The notes: generated from the letters alone by a model not told the origin. 64,000 nt of DNA from a virus (IMGVR_UViG_3300020595_003017:126529-190528), one strand, 5' to 3'. Positions 5,619 through 64,000 are shown, counted from the stretch's first letter. A program made the numbers and translations.

Positions 5619-7601
5619 TTGAAAAACGTCTACTTGTTTGAAATAAACGATATTATAGCAAATCAGATGAAACTTCCCTATAGTACGGGTCTTATTTGGT
5701 CTTATTGTATATTGGACGAGGTGATAACAAATAATTACAACCTTGATGGCTGGTTTTATTACCGACAAGATATGGATGAAATTGTAGATAAAATTGAAAA
5801 CCCTTCGGTCATAGGTTTCAGTTGTTTTGTGTGGAATTGGAAATTTAACAGAGACATTTCAAAAAAGATTAAAGAGAAGTGGCCAGATTGTAAGATAGTT
5901 TTTGGAGGTTGGTATCCTCCGATCCAAGACCGTAGTCAAGGATTTTTCCAAGACAATCCTTATGTTGATATTATTGTTCACGGTGAGGGCGAGTTTACCT
6001 TCAAGGACATACTTTTAGAAAATTTAAAACCAAAAGAGGAACAAGATTGGACTTCGGTAGCTGGTTGCTCCGTTCCTCTCGAAGACTTAACAACCTTCGT
6101 TACCCCTAGCAGAGATCGAATCCCGGACATAAATGGTATGCCAACCCCTTATCTAAATGGGTTGTTTGACGAAATAGCAAAAGATTGTCCCTATGTTTTA
6201 GAGGCTACTTTAGAGACAACAAGAGGGTGCCCTTACCAGTGTACTTTTTGTGAAATTGGAACAAAATATTATCAAAGAGTTAAGTGGCAAGATTTAGAAA
6301 AGGTCTATAAAGAAATTGACTGGATGTCTGATAATAAGGTTGCCTTTGTTTATAATGCTGATTCAAACTTTGGCTTACTTCCAAACCACCTAGAGGTAAC
6401 AAAGTATTTTGTCAAAAAGAAAGAAGAAACAGGATTCCCAGACAAGCACAGATGCGACTGGGCTAAAAATAAAGCAGATAAAGTTTTAGAACTTGCTAAA
6501 CTTTTTACTGATTCTGGAATGGACAAGGGAATTACGGTTGCGTTACAGTCCAGAAATCCTGAAACTCTCAAGGCTGTGAAGAGAAGAAACCTGGACGATG
6601 GTAAACTTGGCGAGTTTCTTAAGATGTATAACGAGGCAAAAGTCCCCGCCTATGTTGAACTGATTTTAGGACTTCCAGAAGAAACTCTTGAAACATTTAT
6701 TCAGGGGATATCTGACGTTATTGAATTAGACCAACACAATTACATTGGTATTTATGCTATGACAGCTTTACCTAATACACCCTTTGGGAAGCAGTCTTAT
6801 ATAGATGAATATGAACTTGAAATAATTAGTACTTTTCAAGCTTTTAATCATTATGATATATCAGGTGATAATGAACTTGAAAGAGAAAAGATGGTTGTTG
6901 GTCATAAAAAACTAACATTTGAAGATTACAAAAACATGCATTATTTTAGATGGGTTGTCATGTCCGGACATTATCTAGGGCTAACACAATTTATCAGTAG
7001 GTTTTTAAGGTCTGAGCATAATGTTTCTTATAAAGACTTTTATGAAAATCTCCTTAAATACTGTTATGATAATCCACATAGTTTTCTAGGAAACGAATTA
7101 AGGCAAACAATAGTTAATTTAGAGGGTTCTTTGGGGGCTACTCAACCATGGGGAAGAATCATTGATGAAGTTAGAGAAAACTTTGGCTGGGATTTTGAAG
7201 AGGCCACAGCGATAAATGTTTGCTTACATAAAGAAAAGTATTATCTAGAAATACTAGACTTTATGAATAGGTATCTCAAAGTAGAGATGCAACAAGATGT
7301 TATGGATGAATTAATGATTTATCAAAAAGTTGGTGTTCTTGATCCAACCTTAACTTATCCAATGAGAAAATCTTTCAAATATAACATTCATGACGTTATT
7401 ACTAAAAAATCAAAACTTAGAAAATATAAAAACGAAATTGAATTCAACGCCAAAAACTATAACGGTGATCTGTATGAGTGGGGAAAAGAGACACTATGGT
7501 GGGGTCGTCGTGTTGGTGCGTGTAAAACAAAAAGAACAAAGGTAACGAAAAAATATAAAACAACCGATGCTCTCAATCCGCTAAGTGGGTTCAAGAGGTA
7601 A
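5619..7601 (+). CDS. Cobalamin (B12)-binding radical SAM protein
   Basis: N-terminal B12-binding region (VIGFSCFVWN, IVFGG, DIIVHGEGE) and CxxxCxxC (RGCPYQCTFC); ELILGLPEET. TTG start; 660 aa. Confidence 0.85.
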   Translation: MKNVYLFEINDIIANQMKLPYSTGLIWSYCILDEVITNNYNLDGWFYYRQDMDEIVDKIENPSVIGFSCFVWNWKFNRDISKKIKEKWPDCKIVFGGWYPPIQDRSQGFFQDNPYVDIIVHGEGEFTFKDILLENLKPKEEQDWTSVAGCSVPLEDLTTFVTPSRDRIPDINGMPTPYLNGLFDEIAKDCPYVLEATLETTRGCPYQCTFCEIGTKYYQRVKWQDLEKVYKEIDWMSDNKVAFVYNADSNFGLLPNHLEVTKYFVKKKEETGFPDKHRCDWAKNKADKVLELAKLFTDSGMDKGITVALQSRNPETLKAVKRRNLDDGKLGEFLKMYNEAKVPAYVELILGLPEETLETFIQGISDVIELDQHNYIGIYAMTALPNTPFGKQSYIDEYELEIISTFQAFNHYDISGDNELEREKMVVGHKKLTFEDYKNMHYFRWVVMSGHYLGLTQFISRFLRSEHNVSYKDFYENLLKYCYDNPHSFLGNELRQTIVNLEGSLGATQPWGRIIDEVRENFGWDFEEATAINVCLHKEKYYLEILDFMNRYLKVEMQQDVMDELMIYQKVGVLDPTLTYPMRKSFKYNIHDVITKKSKLRKYKNEIEFNAKNYNGDLYEWGKETLWWGRRVGACKTKRTKVTKKYKTTDALNPLSGFKR

Positions 7602-51135: not shown

Positions 51136-51144
51136 ACTATTTAA
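51136..51144 (+). promoter_or_regulatory. ACTATTTAA motif, candidate late promoter
   Basis: Sits in the 15-nt gap before the ATG at 51148. Confidence 0.4.
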
Positions 51145-51147
51145 GAC

Positions 51148-51753
51148 ATGGAATTAAACACCGATATCCTTAGATTCATGATAAAAGAAGAGATACAACG
51201 ATCTCTCTTGTTGGAAATGAGACCCGAAGAGGAAGAGGCTGCTGGTACTATAGTCGGAATACTTTCTAGATTAGCAGCCGAAGATATGGACACCGATAGC
51301 GTCATGAACGCTGCGCAGCAACAATTTAAGGCTGCATCTGCTGCGACTGGTGCAGGCAATAGAAGAGACATAAACGAAATGGGCTATGATAAAATGCAGT
51401 CAATAGATATGGGTGTTAAACATCATGACGATCACGAGGGGAACATGGCAAAGCGCCAAATGTTTAAAACAGCCCAATACGCTGCCGAAATCTTTGACAA
51501 TATTCAAGACGGCGATGAGTTTCCAGCCTGGATTCAGAGCAAAATGACAAAGGTAGCAGACTATATCGGAGCCGTCAAGCACTATCTTGAATATGATCAT
51601 GTGATGGGGGAGAAACTTGACAAGGACGCCACCGCTGGTGATTATGTTAAGGACTTTCGAGATTCTGACGCCCCACAATTTAAAGGCAAGTCAAAAAAGA
51701 AAAAGCAAGAGATGGCTGTAGCAGCCTATCTTGATGCAAAAGATAACAAGTAA
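51148..51753 (+). CDS. Modular hypothetical protein with a class-I-like leader
   Basis: MELNTDILRFMIKEEIQRSLLLE leader variant, then modules HEGNMAK...PAWIQSKMTK...HYLEY and DATAGDY.KDF..SDAPQFKGKSKKK...AVAAYLDAK. Confidence 0.65.
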   Translation: MELNTDILRFMIKEEIQRSLLLEMRPEEEEAAGTIVGILSRLAAEDMDTDSVMNAAQQQFKAASAATGAGNRRDINEMGYDKMQSIDMGVKHHDDHEGNMAKRQMFKTAQYAAEIFDNIQDGDEFPAWIQSKMTKVADYIGAVKHYLEYDHVMGEKLDKDATAGDYVKDFRDSDAPQFKGKSKKKKQEMAVAAYLDAKDNK

Positions 51754-51760
51754 AAATTAC

Positions 51761-51788
51761 TTGACCTAATAAAAACATATGGTATTAT
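51761..51788 (+). promoter_or_regulatory. Putative sigma70-type promoter
   Basis: TTGACC (51761-51766), 16 nt, TATTAT (51783-51788) with TG at the extended -10 position; GGGAGG RBS follows. Confidence 0.55.
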
Positions 51789-51810
51789 AGTGTTGAAGGG
51801 AGGTGCTCCT

Positions 51811-52416
51811 ATGAAGTACCAAGTCTTTAGCGATATGGATGGTGTCCTCGTCAATTTTGAGGATGGCGTTCTAAGATTTATGAACCAACGTCTTCGGGAA
51901 CTAAAAGATCAGCCAGATCATCCTGATCACAAACTTGCCCGTTCGGCAGCCAAAGAGATTGGCGGTTGGGATGTTGAGATTGATAAGTGGCACATTGCCC
52001 GCTCCGATCAAGAAGGAAGCCTAAAGAGAAATTACCGTACGAGAGACTTCATGTATCGACTCGTAGAGAACGACGTTGACCTTTGGGCCAACCTCGGCTG
52101 GGAACGTGGTGGCAAAGAACTTTGGGATTATATTAAAGATATTCCAGGTCTTGAGATTTTGTCGGCTCCCATGGCTGAGGGATCAAAGGTCGGCAAGCGG
52201 ATGTGGGTTGAGCGAGAACTGGGTGTCCCAGTTGAAAAAGTCAATCTTTCGGATAGCAAGAAGCCTTATGGAGTCTGGAAAGGAAAACAAGGACTTCTGA
52301 TTGACGACCGTGATAAGTATGTCAACGAGTTCCGAGAAGGTGGTGGTATCGCTATTAAACATAATCCAGATGATGTGGATAATACGATTAGGCAACTCAA
52401 AGAACTAGGGTACTAA
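51811..52416 (+). CDS. HAD-superfamily 5'(3')-deoxyribonucleotidase-like protein
   Basis: FSDMDGVLVNF (DxDG), ILSAP, LLIDDR. ATG at 51811 after GGGAGG. Confidence 0.8.
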   Translation: MKYQVFSDMDGVLVNFEDGVLRFMNQRLRELKDQPDHPDHKLARSAAKEIGGWDVEIDKWHIARSDQEGSLKRNYRTRDFMYRLVENDVDLWANLGWERGGKELWDYIKDIPGLEILSAPMAEGSKVGKRMWVERELGVPVEKVNLSDSKKPYGVWKGKQGLLIDDRDKYVNEFREGGGIAIKHNPDDVDNTIRQLKELGY

Positions 52417-53364
52417 TTGCTCAACGATCCCAACTCGGCGAAGAAGAAAAGAATCCTTGATGAAGTCCTTGGCAGGCCATCCCGCCAGGGCAAGGAATAT
52501 CTTTATACTTCCCGATGTTGCGGTCATCACAAAAAGAAACTATCAGTCAACTTTGACAAGAATGTTGCTAAGTGTTGGACTTGTGACTGGCGCACTAAAA
52601 ATTTACGACGCCTAGTCAGGCGTTGGGGTGATATAAGTCACATCCATAGATGGAAGGACTTTGACGCCGATATTGAGTTGGGCGACCTAGACAACCTGTT
52701 TGCCAAGGAGGAAGAAACTAGCCAACGAATCGACCTTCCAAATGAGTTTCAAACACTTACGGGACGAACACACCCTGCTTCCGCAAGAGTCCCCCTAAAC
52801 TATTTACGCAAGCGTGCCGTTGTAGGGAAAGACATTCTGTTTTGGAAGATAGGCTACTGCGCTTCCGGCGAATACAAAAACAGACTGATTCTCCCATCAT
52901 TTGACGAAGAAGGTTATTGTAACTTTTTTACTTCCCGCACATATGACCCGAACATCTGGCCTCCGTATATGAACGGACCCGGCAACAAAGACATCATATT
53001 TAATGAACTGCTGATTGACTGGGAACGAGAGGTCACTTTGGTTGAGGGTGTTTTTGATGCAATCGTTGCTGGCGAGAACAGTATCCCGCTGCTCGGCTCA
53101 ACCCTGCGAGAAGACAGCCGACTTTTCAGGAAGATTGTAAAAAACGACACTCCTGTCCTGTTGGGGCTGGATGCTGACGCACACAAAAAAGCCATGAGAC
53201 TTGTGAAAGCTTTACTGGCTTATGATGTAGAGGTTCGGTTTATGGACACCTCTGGGTATAAAGATATTGGCGAGATGCCACAAGAAGTTTATGAACAGCG
53301 CAAAGAAGATGCGCCTTTTATTGATTCTGATGCCTATTTATTCAAGATTGCTTTAATGGCATGA
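52417..53364 (+). CDS. dnaG: DNA primase (zinc finger + TOPRIM)
   Basis: CCGH...CWTC zinc region, LVEGVFDAI, PLLGS, LGLDADA TOPRIM motifs, KDIGEM. Confidence 0.85.
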   Translation: MLNDPNSAKKKRILDEVLGRPSRQGKEYLYTSRCCGHHKKKLSVNFDKNVAKCWTCDWRTKNLRRLVRRWGDISHIHRWKDFDADIELGDLDNLFAKEEETSQRIDLPNEFQTLTGRTHPASARVPLNYLRKRAVVGKDILFWKIGYCASGEYKNRLILPSFDEEGYCNFFTSRTYDPNIWPPYMNGPGNKDIIFNELLIDWEREVTLVEGVFDAIVAGENSIPLLGSTLREDSRLFRKIVKNDTPVLLGLDADAHKKAMRLVKALLAYDVEVRFMDTSGYKDIGEMPQEVYEQRKEDAPFIDSDAYLFKIALMA

Positions 53365-53373
53365 GGAATCAGA

Positions 53374-54174
53374 ATGAAGATTACACTATCACAACTTCGG
53401 GGAATGGTTGAAGAAGCCCTTCTTGAGAAGAAGAAAAAGAGTGGCGGTAAAAAAGATGCCTGTTATCATAAGGTGAAAGCCCGTTATGATGTGTGGCCTT
53501 CTGCATATGCTTCTGGTGCCTTGGTTAAGTGTCGTAAAGTTGGTGCTGCCAACTGGGGTAACAAAAGCAAAAAGGAGGGTCTAGAACAAGACCCGCTTCG
53601 TGACATGATCCGTGAAGCTATAGCAGAGTTGGCTGAAAAAAAAACTAACCCTCGCATTCCAAGAAAAAAAGGACAGAAGTCTAAGTCAAAAAAACACAGT
53701 GACCTCTATACCGATGAAGACCCCAAGGGCACCATACACGGATTAAAGTTTGCTACAGAAGCAGACGCTAAAAAAAGCGTGTCTAAAATTAAAAGCTCTA
53801 GCAGGTCACACGCCCATAAAGTTCAGGCTGCTGTCGCCATGGAGCAACGTGCAAAAGCTGCTGGCAAAGCATCAGCCGCTGCTGTATACAGAAAATATAT
53901 TAACTCTGTAAAAAAAGAAGAAGCTATCGAAGAAGCTGACAGCGAAGGATTGCGCAAGTGGTTTGGTCGCAAAGGTGAAAAGGGAAGCAAGAGCGGGTGG
54001 GTAGATTGTAATACTTGCCGCAAAGATAAAAAGACGGGCAGAAAGAAGTGTAGTGCCTGCGGTCGTGAAAGCGGCGAAAAACGAGCTAAATATCCAAAGT
54101 GCCGACCCACGCCCTCAGCGTGTGGCAAGCGAGGCAGCTACGGCAAAAAATCAAAGGCAGGTAAAAAAGGATGA
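53374..54174 (+). CDS. Class-I-leader protein made of three basic modules
   Basis: MKITLSQLRGMVEEALLE, then three Lys/Arg-rich modules separated by Glu-containing linkers. Confidence 0.7.
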   Translation: MKITLSQLRGMVEEALLEKKKKSGGKKDACYHKVKARYDVWPSAYASGALVKCRKVGAANWGNKSKKEGLEQDPLRDMIREAIAELAEKKTNPRIPRKKGQKSKSKKHSDLYTDEDPKGTIHGLKFATEADAKKSVSKIKSSSRSHAHKVQAAVAMEQRAKAAGKASAAAVYRKYINSVKKEEAIEEADSEGLRKWFGRKGEKGSKSGWVDCNTCRKDKKTGRKKCSACGRESGEKRAKYPKCRPTPSACGKRGSYGKKSKAGKKG

Positions 54175-55445
54175 AAATTAAAAAATCAATTTTAATTGAG
54201 GCGGTTAGGAAAGTTATTAAGGAGCAAGATTTTGATGCTTCAAAGTTTCCATACCCCACACCAGACAAGTCAGGAAAATACGCAAAATTTGTAGCACAAG
54301 CTGGAAAACCAGAATTAGACAAAGGTCCACCCAACGACGATCAGGTGTCTTATGACAAAAGATCTGATTTTAGCGCCGATGATTTAAAACCCTCCCAGAA
54401 GGAAATTAAATTAGGTCAAGCTCTTGGTATGGCTATTTCTATGATAGGTAAGCTACCTGGCCCCTTTAAAGACGGACCCGGCGGAGACCTTGGTGCAGTT
54501 ATTTCTAATGATGGTTATATTATGGACGGTCATCATCGTTGGGCTGCCTCCATTTTTGCAGTCGGACCAGAGGTTGAACTAGGAGGTTTTCAGATTGACA
54601 TGCCTGGTGAAGACCTTGTTCAGGTTCTGGCACTGATGGGTGATGCTTTTCACCCTGGCGAGAGAAAGAAGCCATCACCACATAATATCATGACTGCTAC
54701 TATTGATGACGTCAATAATATGATCAATAAATTTGTTCAAGAGGGTGTTGGCGATTTTGTAGATGCAGAAACCGTTAAGAGAGTCCTGGATGAGGCTTAC
54801 GGTGGAGTAGAGCAAGCCAAAGCGCATTTTGTCACACAACTTAAAAATGTTCAAAAACCACCTCCAGAGTGGGCAGAGTCCAGAGATAAGATGCCGGTTC
54901 TTGAACCAGACGCTGGTGAACCTGAGAAGGTTGCAAAAGCAATGAAAACTGGTAATGTCGATGTTTTTTATCCCTACGCTGACCAGGACGCTGAAGAAGA
55001 AGAGGAAGAGGAAGAGGAAGAGGCAGCAAATCGTAAGGACATCAATATCAGTAAAATAAAAATTACGAGAGAAAGTATTACAAGAATTGTTAAGGAATCC
55101 CTCAAGGTTAAACAACAAGAACAATACTATCACATTGCGGATGCTATGTATGATGATGGCACACTTGCAGAAGATATCGAATTTTGGGATGATGTTATTG
55201 AAGAGGCAGAGTACCAAGGACGCAAGGTTACTCTTAATAAACCTATGCGTGGCGACGTAAAGAAATCTAAAGTTTATGTTAAAGACCCTAAGACTGGAAA
55301 CGTGAAGAAGGTAAACTTTGGGGATCCTAACATGAAAATTAAAAAGTCAAACCCAGAAAGACGAAAGTCTTTTCGTGCCCGTCATAACTGTAAAAACCCA
55401 GGACCCAAAACGAAAGCACGCTACTGGTCCTGTAAGGCTTGGTAA
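54171..55445 (+). CDS. Class-I-leader protein: ParB/Srx-like domain + poly-Glu + internal leader + basic Cys module
   Basis: LKPSQKEI...VISNDGYIMDGHHRWAA (ParB-like), E10 run at 54993-55022, IKITRESITRIVKESL, C-terminal RRKSFRARHNC...ARYWSCKAW. Confidence 0.7.
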   Translation: MKIKKSILIEAVRKVIKEQDFDASKFPYPTPDKSGKYAKFVAQAGKPELDKGPPNDDQVSYDKRSDFSADDLKPSQKEIKLGQALGMAISMIGKLPGPFKDGPGGDLGAVISNDGYIMDGHHRWAASIFAVGPEVELGGFQIDMPGEDLVQVLALMGDAFHPGERKKPSPHNIMTATIDDVNNMINKFVQEGVGDFVDAETVKRVLDEAYGGVEQAKAHFVTQLKNVQKPPPEWAESRDKMPVLEPDAGEPEKVAKAMKTGNVDVFYPYADQDAEEEEEEEEEEAANRKDINISKIKITRESITRIVKESLKVKQQEQYYHIADAMYDDGTLAEDIEFWDDVIEEAEYQGRKVTLNKPMRGDVKKSKVYVKDPKTGNVKKVNFGDPNMKIKKSNPERRKSFRARHNCKNPGPKTKARYWSCKAW

Positions 55446-55909
55446 TGAAGAAACTAATGACAGAGTGGAGAAATTTTCTCCAAGAAGAAATGAAAGTTGT
55501 TATTGGAGCAGTCAAGGATTATGTTTGCCCACCAGCAACTCAAGATTTAAAATTAAATACCAAAAACCGTGATGCTTCCATCCATGCAGACCATATTAAA
55601 TATGGACCTTTGAATGTTGACGAGCCTGGTGATTATTGGGAAAAGATAGCAAAGTATTGGGATACCTCTGTTGATGCAGCAAAGAAATCTTTGTGCGCAA
55701 ATTGCACGGCTTTCGATATTTCCCCTCGAATGAAAGAGTGTATGCCCGGTGTAACCTCTGATGAAGACGGAGAACTTGGCTATTGTTGGATGCACCACTT
55801 CAAATGCCATTCAGCCCGTGCTTGTTACACTTGGGCCAAAGGTGGACCAATTGATGAAGATAGTGTATCTCACGAATGGCAATCTCGAAGTCCATTTTCG
55901 GAAAAATAA
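55445..55909 (+). CDS. Class-II-leader Cys/His-rich protein
   Basis: MKKLMTEWRNFLQEE, then CPPAT...CANCTAFD...C...GYCWMHHFKCHSARACYTW. TAATG overlap gives the start at 55445. Confidence 0.7.
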   Translation: MKKLMTEWRNFLQEEMKVVIGAVKDYVCPPATQDLKLNTKNRDASIHADHIKYGPLNVDEPGDYWEKIAKYWDTSVDAAKKSLCANCTAFDISPRMKECMPGVTSDEDGELGYCWMHHFKCHSARACYTWAKGGPIDEDSVSHEWQSRSPFSEK

Positions 55910-55910
55910 A

Positions 55911-56741
55911 ATGAAATTGATCATGGAACAGTGGCGAGGCTTTCTCCAAGAGGGAAGGTACGAAGCAGCCACAACAGAACTGACCCGCAAGGTAATACCT
56001 CACGTCAAATATATTATTGACGAGGTTATTCCCAGTGAGGGTGTTCAAAACTCACGCAAGGATTTGATTCTCGTAATCGGCAAGAAATATCAAGCAGGTA
56101 AAACTCTCCCAAAAGAACTTGAAGATATGATGTATATGGCTGAGTTTACTTTCCATATTGATAAAAAACTAGCGGAAGAAACAGGCGATAAGTTTATGAT
56201 AGGCGGGATGCATATGAGCGTCCCTGGTGAGGGTAAGGAAGACGACTACATAAAAATCAATAGTTATTTTGACATTGGCTTCAACGAGCAAGACCTTAAT
56301 GAATATCTTGGTGAACTCAAAGCTGTCACCATCCACGAAATCCAGCACGGCGGACAAACTGATGATGTGCTAGCCACCGCTTTCCCGCCCAGAGAACCCC
56401 TGAAAATCCCGCAGACCAGATGGGACTACAATAAAATAGATGGTATTCGTGGATATTATGCTTCGGACTCCGAAACAGACACCTACACCAAAGAAGTCTA
56501 TAAAAGAGCAAAGTATTACAAGGTGCCCTACACAGAAGCGTTGGATATGCGTATCAAGCAATTCTTTGATATGTTCCGCCGCCGCCGAGACAAGATAAAC
56601 GCCGAAGACGAGAAAGAAACTCCCGGCGAATATAGAGTAAAATACACAGAAGAAGAACTGAAAGACTTCTTTTACAACGAACTGCGTGATAAATATATTG
56701 CGTTTGCTAAAACAAAATACCCAGAGGCTGTGGGCATATGA
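55911..56741 (+). CDS. Class-II-leader protein with HExxH zinc-metallopeptidase-like motif
   Basis: MKLIMEQWRGFLQE (start re-called from 55761); VTIHEIQHGGQ...YYASDSETDTY. Confidence 0.65.
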   Translation: MKLIMEQWRGFLQEGRYEAATTELTRKVIPHVKYIIDEVIPSEGVQNSRKDLILVIGKKYQAGKTLPKELEDMMYMAEFTFHIDKKLAEETGDKFMIGGMHMSVPGEGKEDDYIKINSYFDIGFNEQDLNEYLGELKAVTIHEIQHGGQTDDVLATAFPPREPLKIPQTRWDYNKIDGIRGYYASDSETDTYTKEVYKRAKYYKVPYTEALDMRIKQFFDMFRRRRDKINAEDEKETPGEYRVKYTEEELKDFFYNELRDKYIAFAKTKYPEAVGI

Positions 56742-57250
56742 AAAAACTCCTAACAGAGTGGCGACAATTTCTAAAAGAATCACAAGAGTTTGTGGAAGAG
56801 AAATCGCCTTTGTCTTATGACCGTGCCAGCAACATTCAGAGACTAGCCCTGCGAGACCCCAGCATAGAACCACCTTACCGTGGGGACTTCGGTTTTGCCG
56901 ACCAGTATAGTTATCGTAATCCCCGCACGGGACGGATGACTAAGAAGAGACACTTGGAAGCCCCAGGGTCAGGCGATGATATTATTGGGTTCTTGGATTA
57001 TCACAGCCAAGGCGAAACCTCCGACGGTAAGCCCTTTCTTTACATTGATTACATGAAGACCCGCCGGGAACACAAGGGACAAGGTGTTGCTACGAAATTG
57101 TTAGAAGAGTTTATCAGCCGCTTCGCACCCGAGCCTGGTTCAGTTATTCACTTCGGGAAAATACAAAACCCAGATATGTGGAGCCTCTACGAGAAAATTA
57201 AAGAGAAATACCCAGAGCACCAGATTATGGGAGCAAAGAACTTCCGATGA
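56738..57250 (+). CDS. Class-II-leader GNAT-family acetyltransferase-like protein
   Basis: MKKLLTEWRQFLKE; IIGFLDY...LYIDYMKTRREHKGQGVATKLLEEF (GNAT motif A, R/Q-x-x-G-x-G/A). Confidence 0.7.
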   Translation: MKKLLTEWRQFLKESQEFVEEKSPLSYDRASNIQRLALRDPSIEPPYRGDFGFADQYSYRNPRTGRMTKKRHLEAPGSGDDIIGFLDYHSQGETSDGKPFLYIDYMKTRREHKGQGVATKLLEEFISRFAPEPGSVIHFGKIQNPDMWSLYEKIKEKYPEHQIMGAKNFR

Positions 57251-57723
57251 AAAAACTATTAACAGAGTGGCGAAAGTATTTGAAGGAAGAGGAAAGCCTT
57301 GATCCTGAACTATACGGAAACTGTGGAACACTAGCAGTCGCTCTTTTACAAGAGGCAATCAGCCGTGGGATAAAAGGCACGGAAGTTGTCCTCGTAGTGG
57401 ACTCAGACCCAGAGTTAGATTCAGGTAACCCCTCGGAAGAATTTGATATTTATCATACAGCCATTTATCGTAATGGAAAATATTATGATACTCGTGGGGA
57501 AATTTCACGAGAAGATGTTGGTTCTGTGGCTCCACTGGGATTGACTACTGACCCATCGGAAAAACCCAAGGAAGGCAGAGACTACCTAGTGTTTAGTTAT
57601 ATGATTGATGACCCTGATAGTTTGGCCTACATCAAAGAGGTTATAGACAACAATACCAACTGGACTAACACCTGTGAGTTCTATGGCGACCGAGCCACAA
57701 AATTTTGGGACACAGTAGGATGA
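57247..57723 (+). CDS. Class-II-leader protein with a possible Cys-His-Asp (papain/transglutaminase-like) triad
   Basis: MKKLLTEWRKYLKEE; GNCGTLAVAL...YHTAIYRNGKYYDTRG. Confidence 0.55.
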   Translation: MKKLLTEWRKYLKEEESLDPELYGNCGTLAVALLQEAISRGIKGTEVVLVVDSDPELDSGNPSEEFDIYHTAIYRNGKYYDTRGEISREDVGSVAPLGLTTDPSEKPKEGRDYLVFSYMIDDPDSLAYIKEVIDNNTNWTNTCEFYGDRATKFWDTVG

Positions 57724-58382
57724 AGCAACTACTAACAGAGTGGCGGAAGTTTGTTCTGACTGAAGGAATGAAGACGGCAGCCAAACTACCTCAAGGCTCG
57801 GCAATTGCTATGATGTCCAGGGGCACAAACCCTATGTTTGTTTATACTTATGGCGGCAAGCCCCTGTATGACGAGCCCAACCCTCGCTTCAATCCTGGCG
57901 TCCCAGAAGGGGCACCTTGGGGAGAGGTTCTGATAGGGAAACTAAAACCAAATAGTCAGGGTGATTGTTCTGATGCTTACGGCGTTGACCATTCTGAAGC
58001 CAAGCGTGGCTGGGGTCCGTTGCTTTACGATGTAGCGATGGAATGGGCAAGCCAGAACGGCGGCGGTCTTACTTCTGATAGGGGCAGCGTATCTCAGAAA
58101 GCATACAGGGTATGGAAGCATTACTTAAACAGCCGACCAGATGTTGAGTCAGCACAACTAGACATTAGAAACAAAGGTTATGAGAAAGTTACTCCTGACG
58201 ATGAAAGCGATGACTGCGAGCAAGCCATCTCTATACAGTGGTCTAGATATTATAGAACTAGTAACGAATTTGGATGGTCAGCCGAACCCACAGCCTACCT
58301 GTATAGAGTAAGCGGAACTCCGACGACGGATGCGTTAAGAGCATCAGGACAATTTTTGGAATTAGGGGATCGCTCGCCGTGA
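57720..58382 (+). CDS. Class-II-leader protein with a divergent GNAT-like domain
   Basis: MKQLLTEWRKFVLTE (start re-called from 57705); VDHSEAKRGWGPLLYDVAMEWA...LTSD..VSQKAYRVWKHY. Confidence 0.55.
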   Translation: MKQLLTEWRKFVLTEGMKTAAKLPQGSAIAMMSRGTNPMFVYTYGGKPLYDEPNPRFNPGVPEGAPWGEVLIGKLKPNSQGDCSDAYGVDHSEAKRGWGPLLYDVAMEWASQNGGGLTSDRGSVSQKAYRVWKHYLNSRPDVESAQLDIRNKGYEKVTPDDESDDCEQAISIQWSRYYRTSNEFGWSAEPTAYLYRVSGTPTTDALRASGQFLELGDRSP

Positions 58383-58978
58383 AAAAATTAATGACAGAGT
58401 GGCGAAAATTTAGACACATTGAAAAAGTAAACGAAAAGGTTTACAAGCAGTACGCCTCTCGTTTGAGCGAAGAATTTCAAGAGGCTTTCTGGAACTTATC
58501 GGAAGACCAAAAAGTATTTGTGGTTGAAGACTGGATAAGCCAAGGACGCCCAGCCCAACATTTAACTGAAGAAAAGATGGCAGACCTTGACGCCGAACAA
58601 GCATATAGCACAAAAGTTCGTGGTGTCAATGTTATTATTAATTTAAAAGATACTGATCTTGAAGCAACCAAACACAGCAAGGAGCGTCAGTTCCGCCACG
58701 ACGAAAAGATTTCCAACAAAGCAATCATCCAGGCAGTTGAAATGGCCATCGGCAAGATTATTCAGGACTATGCGAACGGCGAACTAGGTAATGACGAACC
58801 CTTTCATATTCGCATGGTAGGTAAAGGAAAAGTCCCAGCACTTAATGTCATAGCGGTATTAAACATGCAGAGAGGTCCTGATACAATAAAGGTGATCACA
58901 GTCATGAGAAAAGACGATTTCCAAACTGATGATTTTGCCGACGGACAACAAAAAACTTACACAGTACAAACAAGATAA
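58379..58978 (+). CDS. Class-II-leader protein with a possible RelE/DUF4258-like ribonuclease domain
   Basis: GTG start, MKKLMTEWRKF; ATKHSKERQFRH...IKVITVMRK (H..ER...R and terminal vITv..K pattern). Confidence 0.5.
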   Translation: MKKLMTEWRKFRHIEKVNEKVYKQYASRLSEEFQEAFWNLSEDQKVFVVEDWISQGRPAQHLTEEKMADLDAEQAYSTKVRGVNVIINLKDTDLEATKHSKERQFRHDEKISNKAIIQAVEMAIGKIIQDYANGELGNDEPFHIRMVGKGKVPALNVIAVLNMQRGPDTIKVITVMRKDDFQTDDFADGQQKTYTVQTR

Positions 58979-58991
58979 GAGAGATATATTT

Positions 58992-59363
58992 ATGGCTACT
59001 ATGATTACAGAAGATTGTATTAATTGCGGTGCTTGTGAGCCCGAGTGCCCTAATCAGGCAATTATGGAAGGCAATGAAAAGTATGTGATTAATCCTAATC
59101 TTTGCACAGAGTGTGTTGGTTTTTATGGTTATGAGATGTGCCAAGACGTTTGTCCTGTCGTGTGTTGTATACCTAATCAGCTTCTTCGTGAGTCTGAGGA
59201 AACACTTTATGAGCGTGCTGTTAAGCTACACGGGGATGACTCATTACCACCTAAAGAGGAACTAAGCCCAGAAACCAGTCGCTTTCGAAATCCTGATTGG
59301 GAAAATGAAATTAGTGATTTTGCAGAACCAGCAGAAGATTACACTGAGTATTGGGAAGACTAA
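58992..59363 (+). CDS. yfhL: YfhL-family 2x[4Fe-4S] ferredoxin
   Basis: MATMITEDCINCGACEPECPN...CTECVGF...CQDVCPVVCC. Start re-called to 58992, right after TATTT. Confidence 0.85.
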   Translation: MATMITEDCINCGACEPECPNQAIMEGNEKYVINPNLCTECVGFYGYEMCQDVCPVVCCIPNQLLRESEETLYERAVKLHGDDSLPPKEELSPETSRFRNPDWENEISDFAEPAEDYTEYWED

Positions 59364-59377
59364 AACACCTTTCGCAA

Positions 59378-59386
59378 ACTATTTAC
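59378..59386 (+). promoter_or_regulatory. ACTATTTAC motif, candidate late promoter
   Basis: In the gap before the ATG at 59390. Confidence 0.4.
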
Positions 59387-59389
59387 TTT

Positions 59390-59896
59390 ATGAATAGGGA
59401 AAGGGACTTTTACAGAAAAATGCAAGAAGACGCTCGTAATTCTATGTACGAGCCTGAGATTATTGATGTCTCCCCTTCCGCCGAAACAACAAAACCCAAC
59501 TATATTACAGCAACCATATGGACTACAATTGTGGCCGTACTAGTGTGCGGTGTATTTTCAGGCTTTCTCCTCTACCTTTACAACGAGAGTAATGTAGAAG
59601 AAACTTTGTCTCGTGCTGTTAGTCAAGCCGTAATGAGCCTTGAGCAGACTATAGAACTCCAGAGTAAAGAGATATCTGCTTTGAAGGAAGAAAATAAAAA
59701 GATACACAATTACCTACAACTTTGGACCCCGCTTGACACTCAACGCTTACGACAGCAATATGAAGACAGGCACAAGCCACCAACAGCCGATGACTTATTT
59801 AATACAGGTCCAGACATTATTATCAGGGGACGTGCTTTACCTCCCCTTAGAAAACTTAGCCATGGGGAAAAACTATGCTTACCTTTCTTGGAATAA
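59390..59896 (+). CDS. Single-pass membrane protein with a coiled coil
   Basis: About 38 polar residues, TM helix ITATIWTTIVAVLVCGVFSGFLLYLY, then heptad-like SLEQTIELQSKEISALKEENKKI. Start re-called from 59351. Confidence 0.65.
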   Translation: MNRERDFYRKMQEDARNSMYEPEIIDVSPSAETTKPNYITATIWTTIVAVLVCGVFSGFLLYLYNESNVEETLSRAVSQAVMSLEQTIELQSKEISALKEENKKIHNYLQLWTPLDTQRLRQQYEDRHKPPTADDLFNTGPDIIIRGRALPPLRKLSHGEKLCLPFLE

Positions 59897-60678
59897 TTGT
59901 TTTAGTAATCTTTGTCCACGAATTGGGACATTATGCTGCTGCCCGTGCTTGTGGTGTAGCGGTTGATAGTTTCTCAATAGGCTTCGGCAAAGTCCTCCTT
60001 AAGAAGCAACTGTGGGGAACTGAGTGGCGTTTGTCGCTAATACCTTTCGGTGGCTACATCAAGCCTCGGGGAGAGAATGATTATAATAATGTAAAGAACG
60101 ACCCTCAATCATTCTGGGCAACATCCCCCTTGAAACGAGCCTTCATCGCTGTAATGGGTCCAGTCTTTAATTTATTGTTGCCCTGGCCATTATATTTTAT
60201 GCTCCTGGTAGGACAGCCTTATCCTGATATTGTTGTTCCTGACGGAGCACAGGCAGGACGAATTGGAGTAGTCGAGGCGGCTGTATATTCTGACAGGATT
60301 GCCCGCAAAATGTATAGCAGTATCTGGGATCAGGTGGTCCAGCCCAGAAAAGAACCTTTATCCATCAAGGAGGTGGGTGGACCTGTAGCTGTTTACGAGT
60401 TTACTGAGTCAGCAAGAAAACGTAGTGTTGAAACAGGAGACTGGGGATTTTTGATAGACTGGATAGCTTTCTTCTCTATCAATCTCGGCGTTATTAACTT
60501 ATTGCCAATTCCAGTGTTAGATGGTGGACATATTAGTATTTCTGTGGTAGAAGGCATAAGACGCAAAAAACTAGCCGTAAAGACAAGGAACGTACTAAAT
60601 ATTATTGGTGCGGTTCTAGTGCTCGGTATCTTTGTTTTAGCGATAACTTCTGATGTGCTACGCCTTACCGGCATCTAG
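59875..60678 (+). CDS. rseP: Site-2 intramembrane zinc protease (RseP/M50 family) lacking PDZ domains
   Basis: HELGH, FSIGFG, IPFGGYIK, GPVFN, GGPVAV, NLLPIPVLDGGH; 267 aa. Confidence 0.9.
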   Translation: MLTFLGIIVLVIFVHELGHYAAARACGVAVDSFSIGFGKVLLKKQLWGTEWRLSLIPFGGYIKPRGENDYNNVKNDPQSFWATSPLKRAFIAVMGPVFNLLLPWPLYFMLLVGQPYPDIVVPDGAQAGRIGVVEAAVYSDRIARKMYSSIWDQVVQPRKEPLSIKEVGGPVAVYEFTESARKRSVETGDWGFLIDWIAFFSINLGVINLLPIPVLDGGHISISVVEGIRRKKLAVKTRNVLNIIGAVLVLGIFVLAITSDVLRLTGI

Positions 60679-60680
60679 GA

Positions 60681-60690
60681 ACTATTTATA
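60681..60690 (+). promoter_or_regulatory. ACTATTTATA motif, candidate late promoter
   Basis: Directly after the rseP stop, 20 nt before the ATG at 60711. Confidence 0.45.
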
Positions 60691-60710
60691 TCAACCCAAG
60701 GGGACAAAAG

Positions 60711-60812
60711 ATGAAAAAAATACTTCATAAATTGGTTAATCTTTTTAATGATAAACACTGTTGCTGCTGTGGCACATGCTCTTGTTCTTGCTGTAAGGGA
60801 GAGTGTAAGTGA
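60711..60812 (+). CDS. 33-aa cysteine-rich (metallothionein-like) peptide; not in the supplied ORF track
   Basis: MKKILHKLVNLFNDKHCCCCGTCSCSCCKGECK; AAGGGGA RBS-like sequence upstream; its TGA overlaps the GTG of the next gene. Confidence 0.6.
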   Translation: MKKILHKLVNLFNDKHCCCCGTCSCSCCKGECK

Positions 60813-61330
60813 GAATTACCAAGTCCCAACTTATTCAACTAATCAAAGAAGAAGTAGATAAAGAATTTGAACAGGGTATTGTTCTTGAGTCGGATCTTCG
60901 TAGTTCCGAGCCGAATACGAATAGGCGAAGTGCGCACGGTGATAATAGATCCATCCTGATTCACAAAACAGATTTGCCTACCCTTATGACCACAAGGCAT
61001 TTGGTTTTTCCTGCTCCGAGCGAGGGAACTTATAAAGGTATTAGGGTTGCGCTTAAATTAGTAGAAGGTAAGGACACTATAAAAACGGTAGCTAAGGGAC
61101 GTAAGGACTTGAGGTACCTGTTTTTCGGGCCTATACCGAAGCCCACCAAGTTATCTAAGCCTATTAAATTCACTGTAGATGAAGCTATCTTTAGCACCGA
61201 GAACAACGACGTTGGTAAAATCACTTACGATCGAACTGGTTCTGGTGCTATACTTAAGGATAAACAAGGAAGACGCTACAAAGCTAGTCCTATGGTTTTT
61301 GAAGTGATATTCATCAAAGACGATTCTTAA
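60809..61330 (+). CDS. Class-I-leader hypothetical protein
   Basis: MRITKSQLIQLIKEEV leader; cargo not recognised. Confidence 0.65.
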   Translation: MRITKSQLIQLIKEEVDKEFEQGIVLESDLRSSEPNTNRRSAHGDNRSILIHKTDLPTLMTTRHLVFPAPSEGTYKGIRVALKLVEGKDTIKTVAKGRKDLRYLFFGPIPKPTKLSKPIKFTVDEAIFSTENNDVGKITYDRTGSGAILKDKQGRRYKASPMVFEVIFIKDDS

Positions 61331-61351
61331 GTTAATGGAGATTAAGACAAA

Positions 61352-62068
61352 ATGAAATTGACAGCATCTGATTTACGACAAATAATACAGGAAGTCACCC
61401 AAGGTGAGATGGAGTTTTCTGAACTGGAAGCTGCCCGTGAAGACTATTTGCAAGACAAAAACGACGAAACTCGCTACCAGTTCGGAAGAATGGTGGAAAA
61501 ACTTGTAGAACCTCTTATGGCTGAGATGGGACTTTTCTTTGAGGCTGAAGCCTTTTATAATCGAGGCGAGGTTGTCTTTACTAATAATAGAAATATAGAG
61601 GTGACCATTGATCCTGAAGGTATGCAAGGGGGTTACGATGTATACATTAATCCATTGTATGGAGCGGAGGACGATGTTTCGCCAACTGAAACAACAGTTA
61701 AAAGCATGAAGGGTGCAGCACAATTTGTGGCAGACTTTATGGACCTTGGACCAGAGCCTGCCGGCATGGTCGGCGAACCCGAAGCACAAACAGAATTACC
61801 TTTGGAAAATAAAATGAAAATCACTAAATCACAACTACAACAAGTTATTAGAGAGGCACTTGACGAAGAGATGGAAGACCGCATCTCCGGCAAAGATATG
61901 CTGGCTAAGTATGACGCAGAGGAAGGACTGGACGTAATGTCCGCCGAGGAAGCCATGGAAGAACTTGATAACATCTTGACAGATATCCGACAAACATCCA
62001 CGGACGCCCGTTCAGCCAAACAAGCATACCGAGCCGAAGATATGCTCAGAGTTATAACGAGGGGCTAA
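61352..62068 (+). CDS. Acidic protein with two class-I leaders (N-terminal and internal at 61814)
   Basis: MKLTASDLRQIIQE and in-frame MKITKSQLQQVIRE; GGAG RBS. Confidence 0.7.
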   Translation: MKLTASDLRQIIQEVTQGEMEFSELEAAREDYLQDKNDETRYQFGRMVEKLVEPLMAEMGLFFEAEAFYNRGEVVFTNNRNIEVTIDPEGMQGGYDVYINPLYGAEDDVSPTETTVKSMKGAAQFVADFMDLGPEPAGMVGEPEAQTELPLENKMKITKSQLQQVIREALDEEMEDRISGKDMLAKYDAEEGLDVMSAEEAMEELDNILTDIRQTSTDARSAKQAYRAEDMLRVITRG

Positions 62069-62072
62069 AAAA

Positions 62073-62489
62073 ATGAAAATTACAAAATCACAACTACAAC
62101 AAATCATCAAAGAAGAGATGAAAGCAGAACTTAGCGAAGATAAGTATGCCACCGAAGATGACCGCCCTTTGGGAACAAGCCGCTCTTTGATGAGCGATAA
62201 AGACGCAAGAAGAGTGTTGAAGATGGCAAAAATGCTGTCCGACATGATTACACCAGACCAGTCCATGCCCGCAGAAGCCAGAGCTTTGGCTTCGGACATC
62301 TATGGTATTCTGGAAAAGGGTGTGACTGGTGGCATTTCCGACGGACCAGAAGGAAGCGGACCATCAGCCGATATGGAAGATTACGAAAGTGATTACCGTG
62401 ACCCGCCCCGAAAGCCACTCAAAATGGACAAAGGACGCCGAGCCCCAAGCAAGGCAGAACTTGATAGGATGAAGGACTACGACATCTAA
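62073..62489 (+). CDS. Class-I-leader hypothetical protein
   Basis: MKITKSQLQQIIKEEM leader. Confidence 0.7.
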   Translation: MKITKSQLQQIIKEEMKAELSEDKYATEDDRPLGTSRSLMSDKDARRVLKMAKMLSDMITPDQSMPAEARALASDIYGILEKGVTGGISDGPEGSGPSADMEDYESDYRDPPRKPLKMDKGRRAPSKAELDRMKDYDI

Positions 62490-62490
62490 A

Positions 62491-62784
62491 ATGAAAATCA
62501 CTAAAGCCCAACTACGAAAGATTATCAAAGAAGAACTCCTCAGAGAGGCTAACGGTCCCTTTGGCGACGCTCGTGATGAACCAGTTGCTAGTAGTATCTA
62601 TGATGATCATGATGAATATATGGAGGAGCACGCATACGCACTTGGAAGTTCACTTTCAGCCAGCCCGCCGCTCGCCAGAGAAATCTCCGCTCTTTTAGCA
62701 GAGCAATATCCAAAATCCTCTGAGGCTGTCATGAAAGGGTTCAAAGTGGGCGAGGATAGACTTGCCGACCAATATGTTGATTAA
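62491..62784 (+). CDS. Class-I-leader hypothetical protein
   Basis: MKITKAQLRKIIKEELLRE leader. Confidence 0.7.
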   Translation: MKITKAQLRKIIKEELLREANGPFGDARDEPVASSIYDDHDEYMEEHAYALGSSLSASPPLAREISALLAEQYPKSSEAVMKGFKVGEDRLADQYVD

Positions 62785-62798
62785 TGTGAGAACATAAA

Positions 62799-63116
62799 AT
62801 GAAAATCACCAAATCCCAACTACGAAAGATAATCAAAGAGGAACTTCTCAAAGAAGCGTTACCTCCTCATTTACAAAAGCATTTTCGTAAGGATGGGTCT
62901 TCGGTCCATGGACCCGAAATCAAAGATGTCACTCCTGCTGGTTATGGACCAGAAGATGCGGGAATGGATAGTCAAGTAGCAGCGGACGACTTCAATCAAA
63001 TAAGTAGAAGACTTAGCAAATTGTATAGGCGTCTTGATGATATGGATCAGCAAGATGAGGTTATGGATATAAGAAAGCAACTCGTTGCTTTACGGAAAAG
63101 AGTGACGGGAGCATAA
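62799..63116 (+). CDS. Class-I-leader hypothetical protein
   Basis: MKITKSQLRKIIKEELLKE leader, then ALPPHLQKHF. Confidence 0.7.
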   Translation: MKITKSQLRKIIKEELLKEALPPHLQKHFRKDGSSVHGPEIKDVTPAGYGPEDAGMDSQVAADDFNQISRRLSKLYRRLDDMDQQDEVMDIRKQLVALRKRVTGA

Positions 63117-63117
63117 A

Positions 63118-63489
63118 GTGAAAATCACCAAAGCCCAACTCCGTGAAATGGTGAAGCAACAAATAGAAGAGCGTTGCCAAAAGGGCTACAAGACCCACGA
63201 AAAGCGGAAGACCAAAAAGATGTTCGGCAAGCAGTATAGAAACTGCGTCAAGGCAGAGGCTAATTTGAAAGAACGAGCCGCCATCCCTATGGAAGATATT
63301 GTGCGGGCAGAAGATATTATAAAAAAACATCTAGAAGAAATGTTTGACGAGATAGGCAGAGATGGCCTACCCGAACGATTCTCCCTTGATACTCTTGTGG
63401 AACCAATTATACAAAAGTATATTAGTGCTCGCCGAAGTGATAGGACTCCTCGCTTCAATAAAATGACTGGGCGAATGACTCGCCGCTAG
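63118..63489 (+). CDS. Class-I-leader hypothetical protein with a basic two-Cys module
   Basis: GTG start, MKITKAQLREMVKQQIEE, then RCQKGYKTH...KMFGKQYRNCVKAE. Confidence 0.7.
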   Translation: MKITKAQLREMVKQQIEERCQKGYKTHEKRKTKKMFGKQYRNCVKAEANLKERAAIPMEDIVRAEDIIKKHLEEMFDEIGRDGLPERFSLDTLVEPIIQKYISARRSDRTPRFNKMTGRMTRR

Positions 63490-63516
63490 ATTAGATTAAA
63501 CACCCTAAACATTACC

Positions 63517-63525
63517 TGATACAAT
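63517..63525 (+). promoter_or_regulatory. Putative extended -10 promoter element
   Basis: TGATACAAT (TGn-TACAAT) in the gap before the SbcD-like gene. Confidence 0.4.
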
Positions 63526-63554
63526 AAGGCACGCTTACAAAAGGAGTGCGCTTA
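63525..63554 (+). promoter_or_regulatory. Imperfect hairpin covering the RBS of the SbcD-like gene
   Basis: TAAG-GCAC-G-CTT-[ACAA]-AAG-GA-GTGC-G-CTTA; the 3' arm contains AAGGAG and ends at the A of the ATG. Confidence 0.4.
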
Positions 63555-64000
63555 TGGTGCGGATTGCACATTTCGGGGACACCCACATCAAAAATCTGAA
63601 ATACCATTATGAGTATCGTCAGGCATTTGAGGAAATTTACCAGACCCTGCGAGAGCAGGACGTAGACTATATTGTTCACACAGGCGATTTGGCTCATACA
63701 AAGACACAACTCTCGCCAGAGTATTTTGAACTGGCCACAGAGTTCTTGAAGAACTTGGCGGACATCGCCGAGACTCACATCATCCTTGGCAATCATGACG
63801 GCAACCTCAGGAACAGCAGTCGCCAAGATGCCATCACTCCAATCGTTGACGCTCTTGACCACGCAAGTCTTATCCTTCACAAGTATTCTGGTGAGGTTCA
63901 ATTGGAAGACGACTTGACTATTAACGTTTTGTCAATCTTTGACGAGACCAACTGGCAAGACCCAACTGACCCAGAAGCTATCAACATCGCCCTTTATCAC
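63554..64000 (+). CDS. sbcD: SbcD/Mre11 (T4 gp47-like) metallophosphoesterase nuclease; 3' partial, not in the supplied ORF track
   Basis: MVRIAHFGDTH, IVHTGDLAH, ILGNHD motifs; AAGGAG RBS; the frame runs off the window end. Confidence 0.85.
   Translation, partial: MVRIAHFGDTHIKNLKYHYEYRQAFEEIYQTLREQDVDYIVHTGDLAHTKTQLSPEYFELATEFLKNLADIAETHIILGNHDGNLRNSSRQDAITPIVDALDHASLILHKYSGEVQLEDDLTINVLSIFDETNWQDPTDPEAINIALYH

Follow-up and report, generated by a model that had tools for sequence, protein, structure and literature searches.

Two interchangeable N-terminal leaders on a shuffling set of marine phage proteins as probable T4-like capsid-targeting sequences

The window analyzed here is a 64,000-nucleotide stretch of viral DNA (IMGVR_UViG_3300020595_003017:126529-190528), the final 64 kb of a single 190,528-bp virus record in IMG/VR. 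Between positions 51148 and 63489, conserved core genes flank two hypervariable arrays of cargo genes, whose products have unrelated bodies that begin with one of two short leaders, here called class I and class II. The leaders are probably capsid-targeting sequences of the kind known from phage T4. A preliminary description of the window had listed 15 starts of such genes, and all of them proved to be starts of open reading frames (ORFs) on the plus strand. A profile scan of the whole genome confirmed the two leader classes in front of unrelated bodies and extended them beyond the coordinates first listed. The features listed with coordinates in the next two paragraphs lie on the plus strand, and positions are those of the window unless the genome is named.

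The first array consists of one basic class I gene and a class II array. Its first gene (53374..54174) encodes a class I leader and a basic (isoelectric point, pI, 10.1), Cys-rich 266-aa body that matches phrog_727 and has a PSAYA-type motif; a late-promoter motif candidate, CTATTTAT, lies 40 nt upstream at 53334..53341. In the 424-aa protein encoded at 54171..55445, a variant leader precedes a ParB-like-looking body that is fused to a second cassette with a degenerate internal class I leader (55053-55097). Six class II genes follow. Their leaders precede a 154-aa body with seven Cys residues (55445..55909, found by the leader hidden Markov model, HMM), a 276-aa body with an HEIQH motif whose family has eight members in relatives (55911..56741), a GNAT acetyltransferase body (56738..57250; Pfam PF00583, E 3.6e-6, over the cut-off), an acidic 158-aa body found by leader HMM and assigned to no family (57247..57723), a 220-aa body (57720..58382), and a 199-aa body (58379..58978) in a gene with a GTG start, where the leader motif is displaced to V-N-E at residue 19. 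The AlphaFold2 model of the 57720 protein (predicted local distance difference test score, pLDDT, 73.6) suggests a weak GNAT-like fold; its top Foldseek matches are nearly all GNATs but weak (E 0.03 or worse).

A conserved spacer block (58929..60678) encoding a ferredoxin-like protein of the 2x[4Fe-4S] type, a 181-aa membrane protein and an M50 site-2-type protease separates the two arrays. A second CTATTTAT late-promoter motif candidate (60682..60689) stands ahead of a 33-aa Cys-rich ORF and the second array, which is made up of class I genes. The first of these (60809..61330, GTG start, leader HMM) has a basic 173-aa body. The next (61352..62068) encodes a double-leader 238-aa protein that is widespread in marine metagenomes, with class I leaders at its N-terminus and at residue 155 (nt 61814). 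Acidic bodies of 138 aa (62073..62489) and 97 aa (62491..62784) and a 105-aa body (62799..63116) follow, all with class I leaders found by HMM. The last gene (63118..63489) has a GTG start, a motif displaced to I-E-E at residue 18 and a basic 123-aa body. Upstream of both arrays, a 201-aa protein (51148..51753) carries a variant class I-like leader (MELNTDILRFMIKE followed by E), with a late-motif candidate 11 nt upstream at 51137; this gene is kept in several relatives between RuvC-like and nucleotidase genes. Just behind it, an early-type sigma-70-like promoter match (51761..51789, TTGAC-N17-TATTAT) precedes the nucleotidase and primase genes and shares a AAAACTTGAC-type consensus with about 12 other early-region sites.

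HMMs of the leaders were run on the six-frame translation of the whole 190.5-kb genome. The class I model gave 15 matches (18.9-39 bits), 13 at ORF starts and two internal, and the class II model gave eight (27-32 bits), every one at an ORF start. None of these 23 matches fell in a non-coding frame or on the minus strand, and three residue-shuffled copies of the six-frame set yielded no match of 15 bits or more (maximum 10.9). The genes at 51148 and 54171 had been described as variants, and they are weak ones; the former scores 8.6 bits and the latter is recognizable by eye only. Additional leader copies were found at genome positions 102, 382, 557, 1161, 48432, 93254 and 95516, with weak variants at 16814, 63976, 92219, 177676 (window 51148) and 180699 (window 54171). 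The internal class I copy at 61814 and the degenerate one at 55053-55097 complete the set, and about 20 cargo genes in the genome carry a leader. No Pfam family matched the leaders when 20 leader-bearing proteins were scanned whole at E 0.01.

For the anatomy of the leaders, we used 204 distinct leader ORFs from the present genome and 37 IMG/VR loci. The class I consensus in this set is M-K-I-T-K-S-Q-L-R-x-(I/M/L)-(I/V)-K-E-E-(L/I/V), and that of class II is M-K-(K/L/Q)-L-(L/M)-(T/E)-E-W-R-x-(F/Y)-L-x-E with an invariant W8. Both place hydrophobic residues at i, i+3/4 and i+7, the pattern of an amphipathic helix. Among the late positions, conservation is highest at residues 12 and 14. Class II is conserved through residue 14, with relative entropy at background by residue 15-16, and class I through residue 16, with background reached by residue 17-20. 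The claim that similarity stops at an L/I-x-E ending thus holds. The ending itself is equally regular: the Glu of an [LIV]-x-E falls exactly on residue 14 in 88% of class I leaders and 83% of class II leaders, and such a motif ends between residues 12 and 20 in 97-99% of leaders versus 13% of body windows of equal size. Where the motif at residue 14 is lost, a substitute [LIV]-x-E nearly always lies within a few residues. Every synonymous codon occurs at the conserved leader residues, which indicates that selection acts on the leader peptide; codon entropy at these positions is 38-100% of the genome-wide value and exceeds 60% at 14 of the 18 positions examined. Codon choice in the leaders is also skewed to CTA, ACA and CGA/CGG, unlike the remaining genome, and the skew therefore points to some DNA-level homogenization as well.

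The bodies behind the leaders are diverse and mobile. Clustering of 202 leader-bearing proteins gave 93 body clusters, 66 of them singletons, and the idea of a shufflable cargo was borne out, with bodies that swap and one body that occurs under either leader. The class I protein L042:9600 and the class II protein L038:10001 have bodies 98% identical over 107 residues. This shared module is the C-terminal part of the 424-aa protein at 54171; in relatives, it is a free-standing cassette under a class I or a class II leader. The internal class I leader at residue 155 of the 238-aa protein is kept in about 120 metagenomic orthologues. The fused 54171 and 61352 proteins with their internal leaders therefore indicate that cassettes fuse and that the internal tag stays conserved. 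An AlphaFold2 model of the 238-aa protein, built from 42 orthologues, has a confident globular core (residues 21-133), and both leaders appear in it as undocked helices with pLDDT below 50. Because there are 93 body clusters, a body swap between classes and undocked leader helices in the model, the leaders behave as tags rather than as parts of a fold.

Pfam and PHROGs name few of the bodies, and the recognizable ones amount to GNAT, a second, weak GNAT-like fold, DUF3293, phrog_727 and the HEIQH motif. The class II-tagged protein at L004:533-1231 (genome 48432-49130) matches DUF3293 at 37.8 bits, over the cut-off, and has a sub-threshold match to the S-adenosylmethionine lyase family; judged by these matches, this cargo may be of an anti-restriction type. 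The bodies hold two to nine further [LIV]-x-E sites per protein.

Cassette turnover is also visible at the contig ends, which are diverged copies of each other (genome 1-2252, locus L002, and window 62390-64000, 84-94% identical). The two copies, the first 2.2 kb and the last 1.6 kb, hold different leader cassettes inside common flanks. The ends are probably two strain variants of a circularly permuted genome that were joined in assembly, and on the sequence comparison their difference shows cassette turnover inside one population. Because of this 84-94% identity, the four leader copies at genome 102-1161 may be allelic alternatives of the copies at window 62491-63118.

The genome has a T4-like head module comprising large terminase (TerL), a gp20-type portal, a gp21-type protease, an acidic scaffold-like protein and a gp23-type major capsid protein (MCP). 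By MCP, the nearest isolates are Flavobacterium phage vB_FspM_immuto (hereafter immuto; 45% identity), Microcystis phage Mel-JY01 and Rhodothermus phage RM378, and cyanophage gp23 is about 32-34% identical to the MCP of this genome. On these identities, we class the virus as an uncultured marine "Far-T4" myovirus. Close relatives share a common frame of RuvC-like gene, in some cases the 51148-type gene, nucleotidase, primase, first array, membrane protein, M50, second array and SbcCD-like gene, and the cassette content differs in every one of them. Most close relatives keep the ferredoxin, membrane protein and M50 block between the arrays, but G002 has its M50 gene at another place. Neighboring class II genes share the 4-nt overlap ATGA and class I genes follow TAA-A-ATG, so that the spacers between leader genes are 0-20 nt or 4-nt overlaps.

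Leaders occur in this genome and in 37 related loci, with 204 distinct ORFs in all. The class II pattern has 41 confirmed places in IMG/VR and one confirmed match in 596 Gb of prokaryote genomes. The contig of that match carries homologues of the phage's genes and is therefore regarded as a mis-binned relative, and on this survey the class II pattern appears restricted to phages. Class I patterns occur at no fewer than 587 places in IMG/VR (a count of at least 587). Leaders were not found in Mel-JY01, RM378, S-SSM4 or Bellamy. A tblastn search of 50,697 phage records with two leader proteins at full length gave no match at E up to 1, the leaders themselves being too short for BLAST, and the leader strings had no match in the literature searched. 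Megablast of the region gave a sole match of 69 nt, in phage Bellamy.

The preliminary description had proposed a search for the prohead protease gene, and this gene was located at genome 14940-15536; its product is of the gp21 (S77) type (PF03420, E 1.2e-31, 106 bits, genome 15033-15455; phrog_207, E 6e-54). The S77 protease is likewise present in all six leader-bearing records that are at least 90% complete, and 12 of 25 leader-bearing fragments have it, about as many as their completeness predicts (9.6 expected). The MCP propeptide keeps an [LIV]-x-E about 23 residues before a conserved PIVRRVF block in all eight relatives aligned, at the position where T4 gp23 is cut. The class I leader has a likely counterpart within the head module. 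In seven genomes, including the present one, a conserved 123-153-aa head-module protein starts with MKKSELKxIIKEC or MSKITKNDLKGIVKEC; its gene lies directly 3' of the protease gene in six of them, and here a 419-aa gene intervenes. We searched an HMM of the first 14 residues of this protein against the N-termini of all 226 ORFs of the genome, and class I genes were the best non-self matches (E 3e-5 to 8e-4), which indicates at the sequence level that the class I leader resembles the N-terminus of the conserved head-module protein. This protein carries many [LIV]-x-E sites. For class II, the protease itself starts with MKLLTEW or MQLLREW in two distant relatives, and an HMM of protease N-termini that includes them picks class II genes (E 2e-4 to 4e-2); we treat this likeness as a lead only. 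Comparison by hhalign of the family of small post-protease proteins with T4 gp67 and gp68 revealed no relation. A W-x-x-L-A C-terminal motif is common to the scaffold-like protein (L003:8965-9945) and the post-protease small protein (L003:7814-8197), and may be a shared capsid-binding tail.

Leader-like genes adjoin the head genes in more distant phages as well. In immuto, two cargo-type genes start with MKKSQLRQIIKE and MKKSQLREIIRKE, and two small leader-like genes adjoin the protease gene. Leaders of the MKKSQLR type are found on immuto35A_176 and immuto35A_190, and immuto35A_198 and immuto35A_201 belong to the head module. In LR756508, a 484-kb uncultured phage, about 20 small genes have class I-like starts (MKLTERKLRNLVKE, MRLTERRLKKIVKEE and similar) and are packed in the head module between a portal-adjacent gene, the protease and the scaffold (loci L061 and L063, 150-166 kb and 189-192 kb); the protease there lies within a 574-aa protein. 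The same phage has, at 177.7-182 kb (L062), paralogous 170-280-aa genes after the capsid gene with MRLKEILLE-like starts and an L-Y/M-R-G-T motif, and their products are possibly ADP-ribosyltransferase-like.

Expression timing was judged from promoter motifs and codon usage. The motif CTATTTAY has 19 sites on the plus strand of the genome and two on the minus strand, and 11 of the 19 are followed by a start codon within 100 nt (p 9e-7). It precedes scaffold, sheath and other structural genes at positions kept in relatives, and it stands directly ahead of both arrays (53334 and 60682). In immuto, CTATTTAY runs into TATAAATA, the T4 late-promoter consensus. The first array gene is marked by the late motif in many relatives, including L015, L029, L038 and L042. 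Late expression of the arrays is therefore plausible on the motif evidence.

Taken together, these findings favor the reading that the leaders serve as capsid-targeting sequences like that of T4 and that the prohead protease removes them, which we consider probable though well short of certain. Each sequence-level expectation of this reading that could be tested was borne out. According to it, the leaders would attach freshly synthesized accessory proteins to the scaffolding core while the prohead is being assembled. The S77 (gp21-type) protease would then cleave behind the Glu of the [I/L/V]-x-E that spans residues 12-14, and cleavage would free the body inside the head. The shared leader DNA would let cassettes be exchanged, fused and re-tagged. 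What the sequences show is the leader pattern with its distribution and modularity, and the protease gene; docking, cleavage, late expression, retention of the bodies in the head and their entry into the host with the DNA are steps that we infer. Delivery of the bodies into the host is the more tentative part, and we rate it as somewhat doubtful. Equally conjectural is the wider picture of a clade of marine and huge T4-related phages in which two interchangeable tags might load a rapidly shuffling effector library into the head, to be injected with the DNA; fused cassettes would be self-resolving, since the head protease could separate them again at their internal tags. In that picture, one tag would be copied from a prohead-core protein and the other would be like the N-termini of some prohead proteases, with about 20 effectors per genome and more than 90 families in 37 loci. 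The capsid-targeting proposal of the preliminary description is thus supported in part, namely as to the protease, the motif position, the body swaps, the head-protein likeness, the near-absence of the class II pattern from cellular genomes and the late-type motif. Its detail of basic peptides for DNA packaging suits no more than a few bodies, most being acidic.

Several observations weigh against this reading. Most bodies have a pI of 4.2-5.6 and few are strongly basic, in contrast to the basic internal proteins of T4, and acidic bodies would suit retention in a DNA-filled head less well. Homology between the leaders and the T4 capsid-targeting sequence (CTS) MKTYQEFIAE could not be demonstrated. 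The short [LIV]-x-E motif easily arises in a helix rich in E, K, I and L. The co-occurrence of the leaders with the S77 protease is inseparable from common ancestry. When the two distant relatives are left out of the protease N-terminus HMM, its likeness to class II is not significant. As to timing, the 9-mer of the late motif shows no enrichment when the window is taken by itself (five found, two expected), and the assignment of CTATTTAY as a late promoter is itself a prediction. The arrays sit among replication genes, and the early-type promoter (TTGAC-N17-TAnnAT) that precedes the nucleotidase and primase genes lies 1.6 kb ahead of the first array. In codon usage, the leader genes fall between early and tail genes and resemble the head genes; ATA makes up 24% of their Ile codons, versus 43% for structural genes and 12-16% for early or replication genes. 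Finally, a literature search found no virion proteome for the clade.

Among the alternatives, the one that survives best accepts that the leaders target proteins to the prohead and are cut there, and takes most of the bodies, which are acidic, as expendable core or scaffold filler, or as needed for maturation only, to be expelled or degraded undelivered. The acidity of most bodies, which recalls the T4 core proteins gp67 and gp68, speaks for it, as do their further [LIV]-x-E sites and the class I prototype, a head-module protein that is itself rich in such sites. However, the hypervariability of the bodies, with 66 singleton families and cassette differences between strains, fits arms-race effectors better, and enzyme-like bodies (GNAT, HExxH and DUF3293) fit an effector role better. 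We consider this alternative unlikely, though it deserves to be kept in mind.

A less probable alternative, and to us an improbable one, is that the leader is a docking helix for a partner outside the prohead, such as a modifying enzyme, the phage's own M50 protease or GroEL, or a hub protein of the host. The genome does encode a GroEL and one radical-S-adenosylmethionine (radical-SAM) protein, and in most close relatives the M50 protease, the ferredoxin and the Cys-rich peptide are conserved between the arrays. However, immuto bears leaders without M50, the leader-rich genomes G001 (98% complete) and G002 (95% complete) have no radical SAM, and neither M50 nor radical SAM would explain the fixed, compensated [LIV]-x-E or the head-protein likeness. 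Two specific forms of a partner were rejected. A tag for a radical-SAM maturase of the kind that acts on ribosomally synthesized and post-translationally modified peptides was discarded on the absence of PF04055 from G001 and G002; the lone radical-SAM gene lies about 46 kb from the nearer window array, and its distance to the leader genes at genome 93254-95516 is about 37 kb. Substrates of the M50 (site-2) protease were discarded on the absence of PF02163 from the complete genome of immuto, and also on the nature of the leaders, which are charged amphipathic helices and not transmembrane segments.

The weakest alternative, which we regard as very improbable, makes the shared 5' end mainly a DNA-level device (a homology patch for shuffling, or a favorable translation start) whose peptide has no sorting role; it draws on leader DNA that is 83-96% identical between copies, a codon skew indicative of gene conversion, cassette breakpoints between the contig-end variants that fall at leaders, and stereotyped TAAAATG or ATGA junctions, but it is at odds with the free use of synonymous codons (38-100% of genome-wide entropy), with a peptide conserved in phages whose MCP is just 45% identical, with the retention of internal leaders by the fused 238-aa protein across about 120 orthologues, and with the fact that DNA homology needs neither Glu14 nor a compensating motif.

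The capsid-targeting reading can be set against known systems. In T4, a 10-residue CTS takes proteins into the scaffolding core and gp21 cuts after L/I-x-E, and T-even cargo is diverse, with the tag as its only conserved part (PMC9026906, PMC3012670). Within the T4 CTS, the aromatic residue 7 and residue 4 serve targeting, and residues 8 and 10 serve processing (PMC9026906). We checked on the sequences that T4 ipII and ipIII are adjacent genes with MKTYQEFIAE in common and unrelated bodies. The present system resembles T4 IPI, IPII, IPIII and Alt in its short, amphipathic N-terminal leader that begins M-K, ends in I/L-x-E and precedes unrelated proteins, and in its adjacent genes at polymorphic loci in a phage that encodes an S77 protease. 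The invariant W8 of class II and the conserved residues 12 and 14 parallel T4 residues 7, 4, 8 and 10. The likeness between class II and the T4 CTS is one of pattern only (M-K-x-hydrophobic-polar-E-aromatic), in peptides too short for statistics. The differences are that the leaders are 14 residues long rather than 10, that two classes are interchangeable on one body, that a genome holds about 20 cargo genes rather than three or four, that fused cassettes have internal leaders, and that the system belongs to a distant marine "Far-T4" clade and is known from sequence alone. The two interchangeable tags, their 14-residue length, the roughly 20 cargo genes, the internal tags and the likeness of class I to a head protein are what we regard as new with respect to T4. 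We do not claim strict membership in the T4 CTS and internal-protein system, since no homology of the tags can be detected and packaging is predicted only.

In phiKZ-like giant phages (201phi2-1 and SPN3US), the N-terminal propeptides of many head proteins are cut after Glu, with redundant sites (PMC9026906). These phages share with the proposed system head-packaged proteins whose propeptides are removed by gp21-related proteases at a short motif. However, the motif there is S/A-x-E, and the proteins were found by virion mass spectrometry, whereas those described here are predicted from sequence. To our knowledge, a common leader across unrelated cargo has not been described in phiKZ-like phages. 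The PeSL (promoter and stem-loop) cassettes of T4-like hyperplastic regions contain intergenic promoter/terminator elements (PMC2839356, PMC4122927), and they too combine short repeats at gene boundaries with modular shuffling of accessory genes between core genes. Unlike those elements, the repeat here is coding, opens with the start codon and is conserved at the peptide level. A cassette of the PeSL type was rejected, the repeat being coding from the ATG and the spacers 0-20 nt or 4-nt overlaps.

If the capsid-targeting and delivery reading is true, capsid-targeted protein delivery would not be peculiar to T-even coliphages with three or four internal proteins, and abundant ocean phages would devote about one-tenth of their genes to a large, evolvable cargo system. 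A simple sequence rule, a tag plus [I/L/V]-x-E at residue 14, would then predict virion-delivered effectors straight from metagenomes, and these would probably be anti-defense and host-takeover enzymes. The N-termini of resident prohead proteins would be the suggested origin of the tags, and two orthogonal natural tags would be available for loading foreign proteins into phage heads.

Several other features of the genome were observed. The 33-aa ORF (60711-60812) between the arrays ends in CCCCGTCSCSCCKGECK, is conserved in two relatives (100% and 85%), and sits just past the M50 protease gene and just downstream of the late-motif candidate. The 660-aa radical-SAM protein (PF04055, 51 bits) is encoded at 5619-7601, upstream of tail genes, in surroundings that look like a sugar/glycan biosynthesis cluster. 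A GroEL-like chaperonin with the N-terminus MTKDHILFGEDIRQRLL is encoded at genome 67798-69384. Genome-wide, codon usage is split: ATA makes up 43% of Ile codons and AGR 71% of Arg codons in structural genes, versus 12-16% and 25-34%, respectively, in early or replication genes. Within the head module, a ribosomal protein S21-like gene was found at L003:8197-8478 (genome 17197-17478), and the syntenic gene of Mel-JY01 is annotated RpsU.

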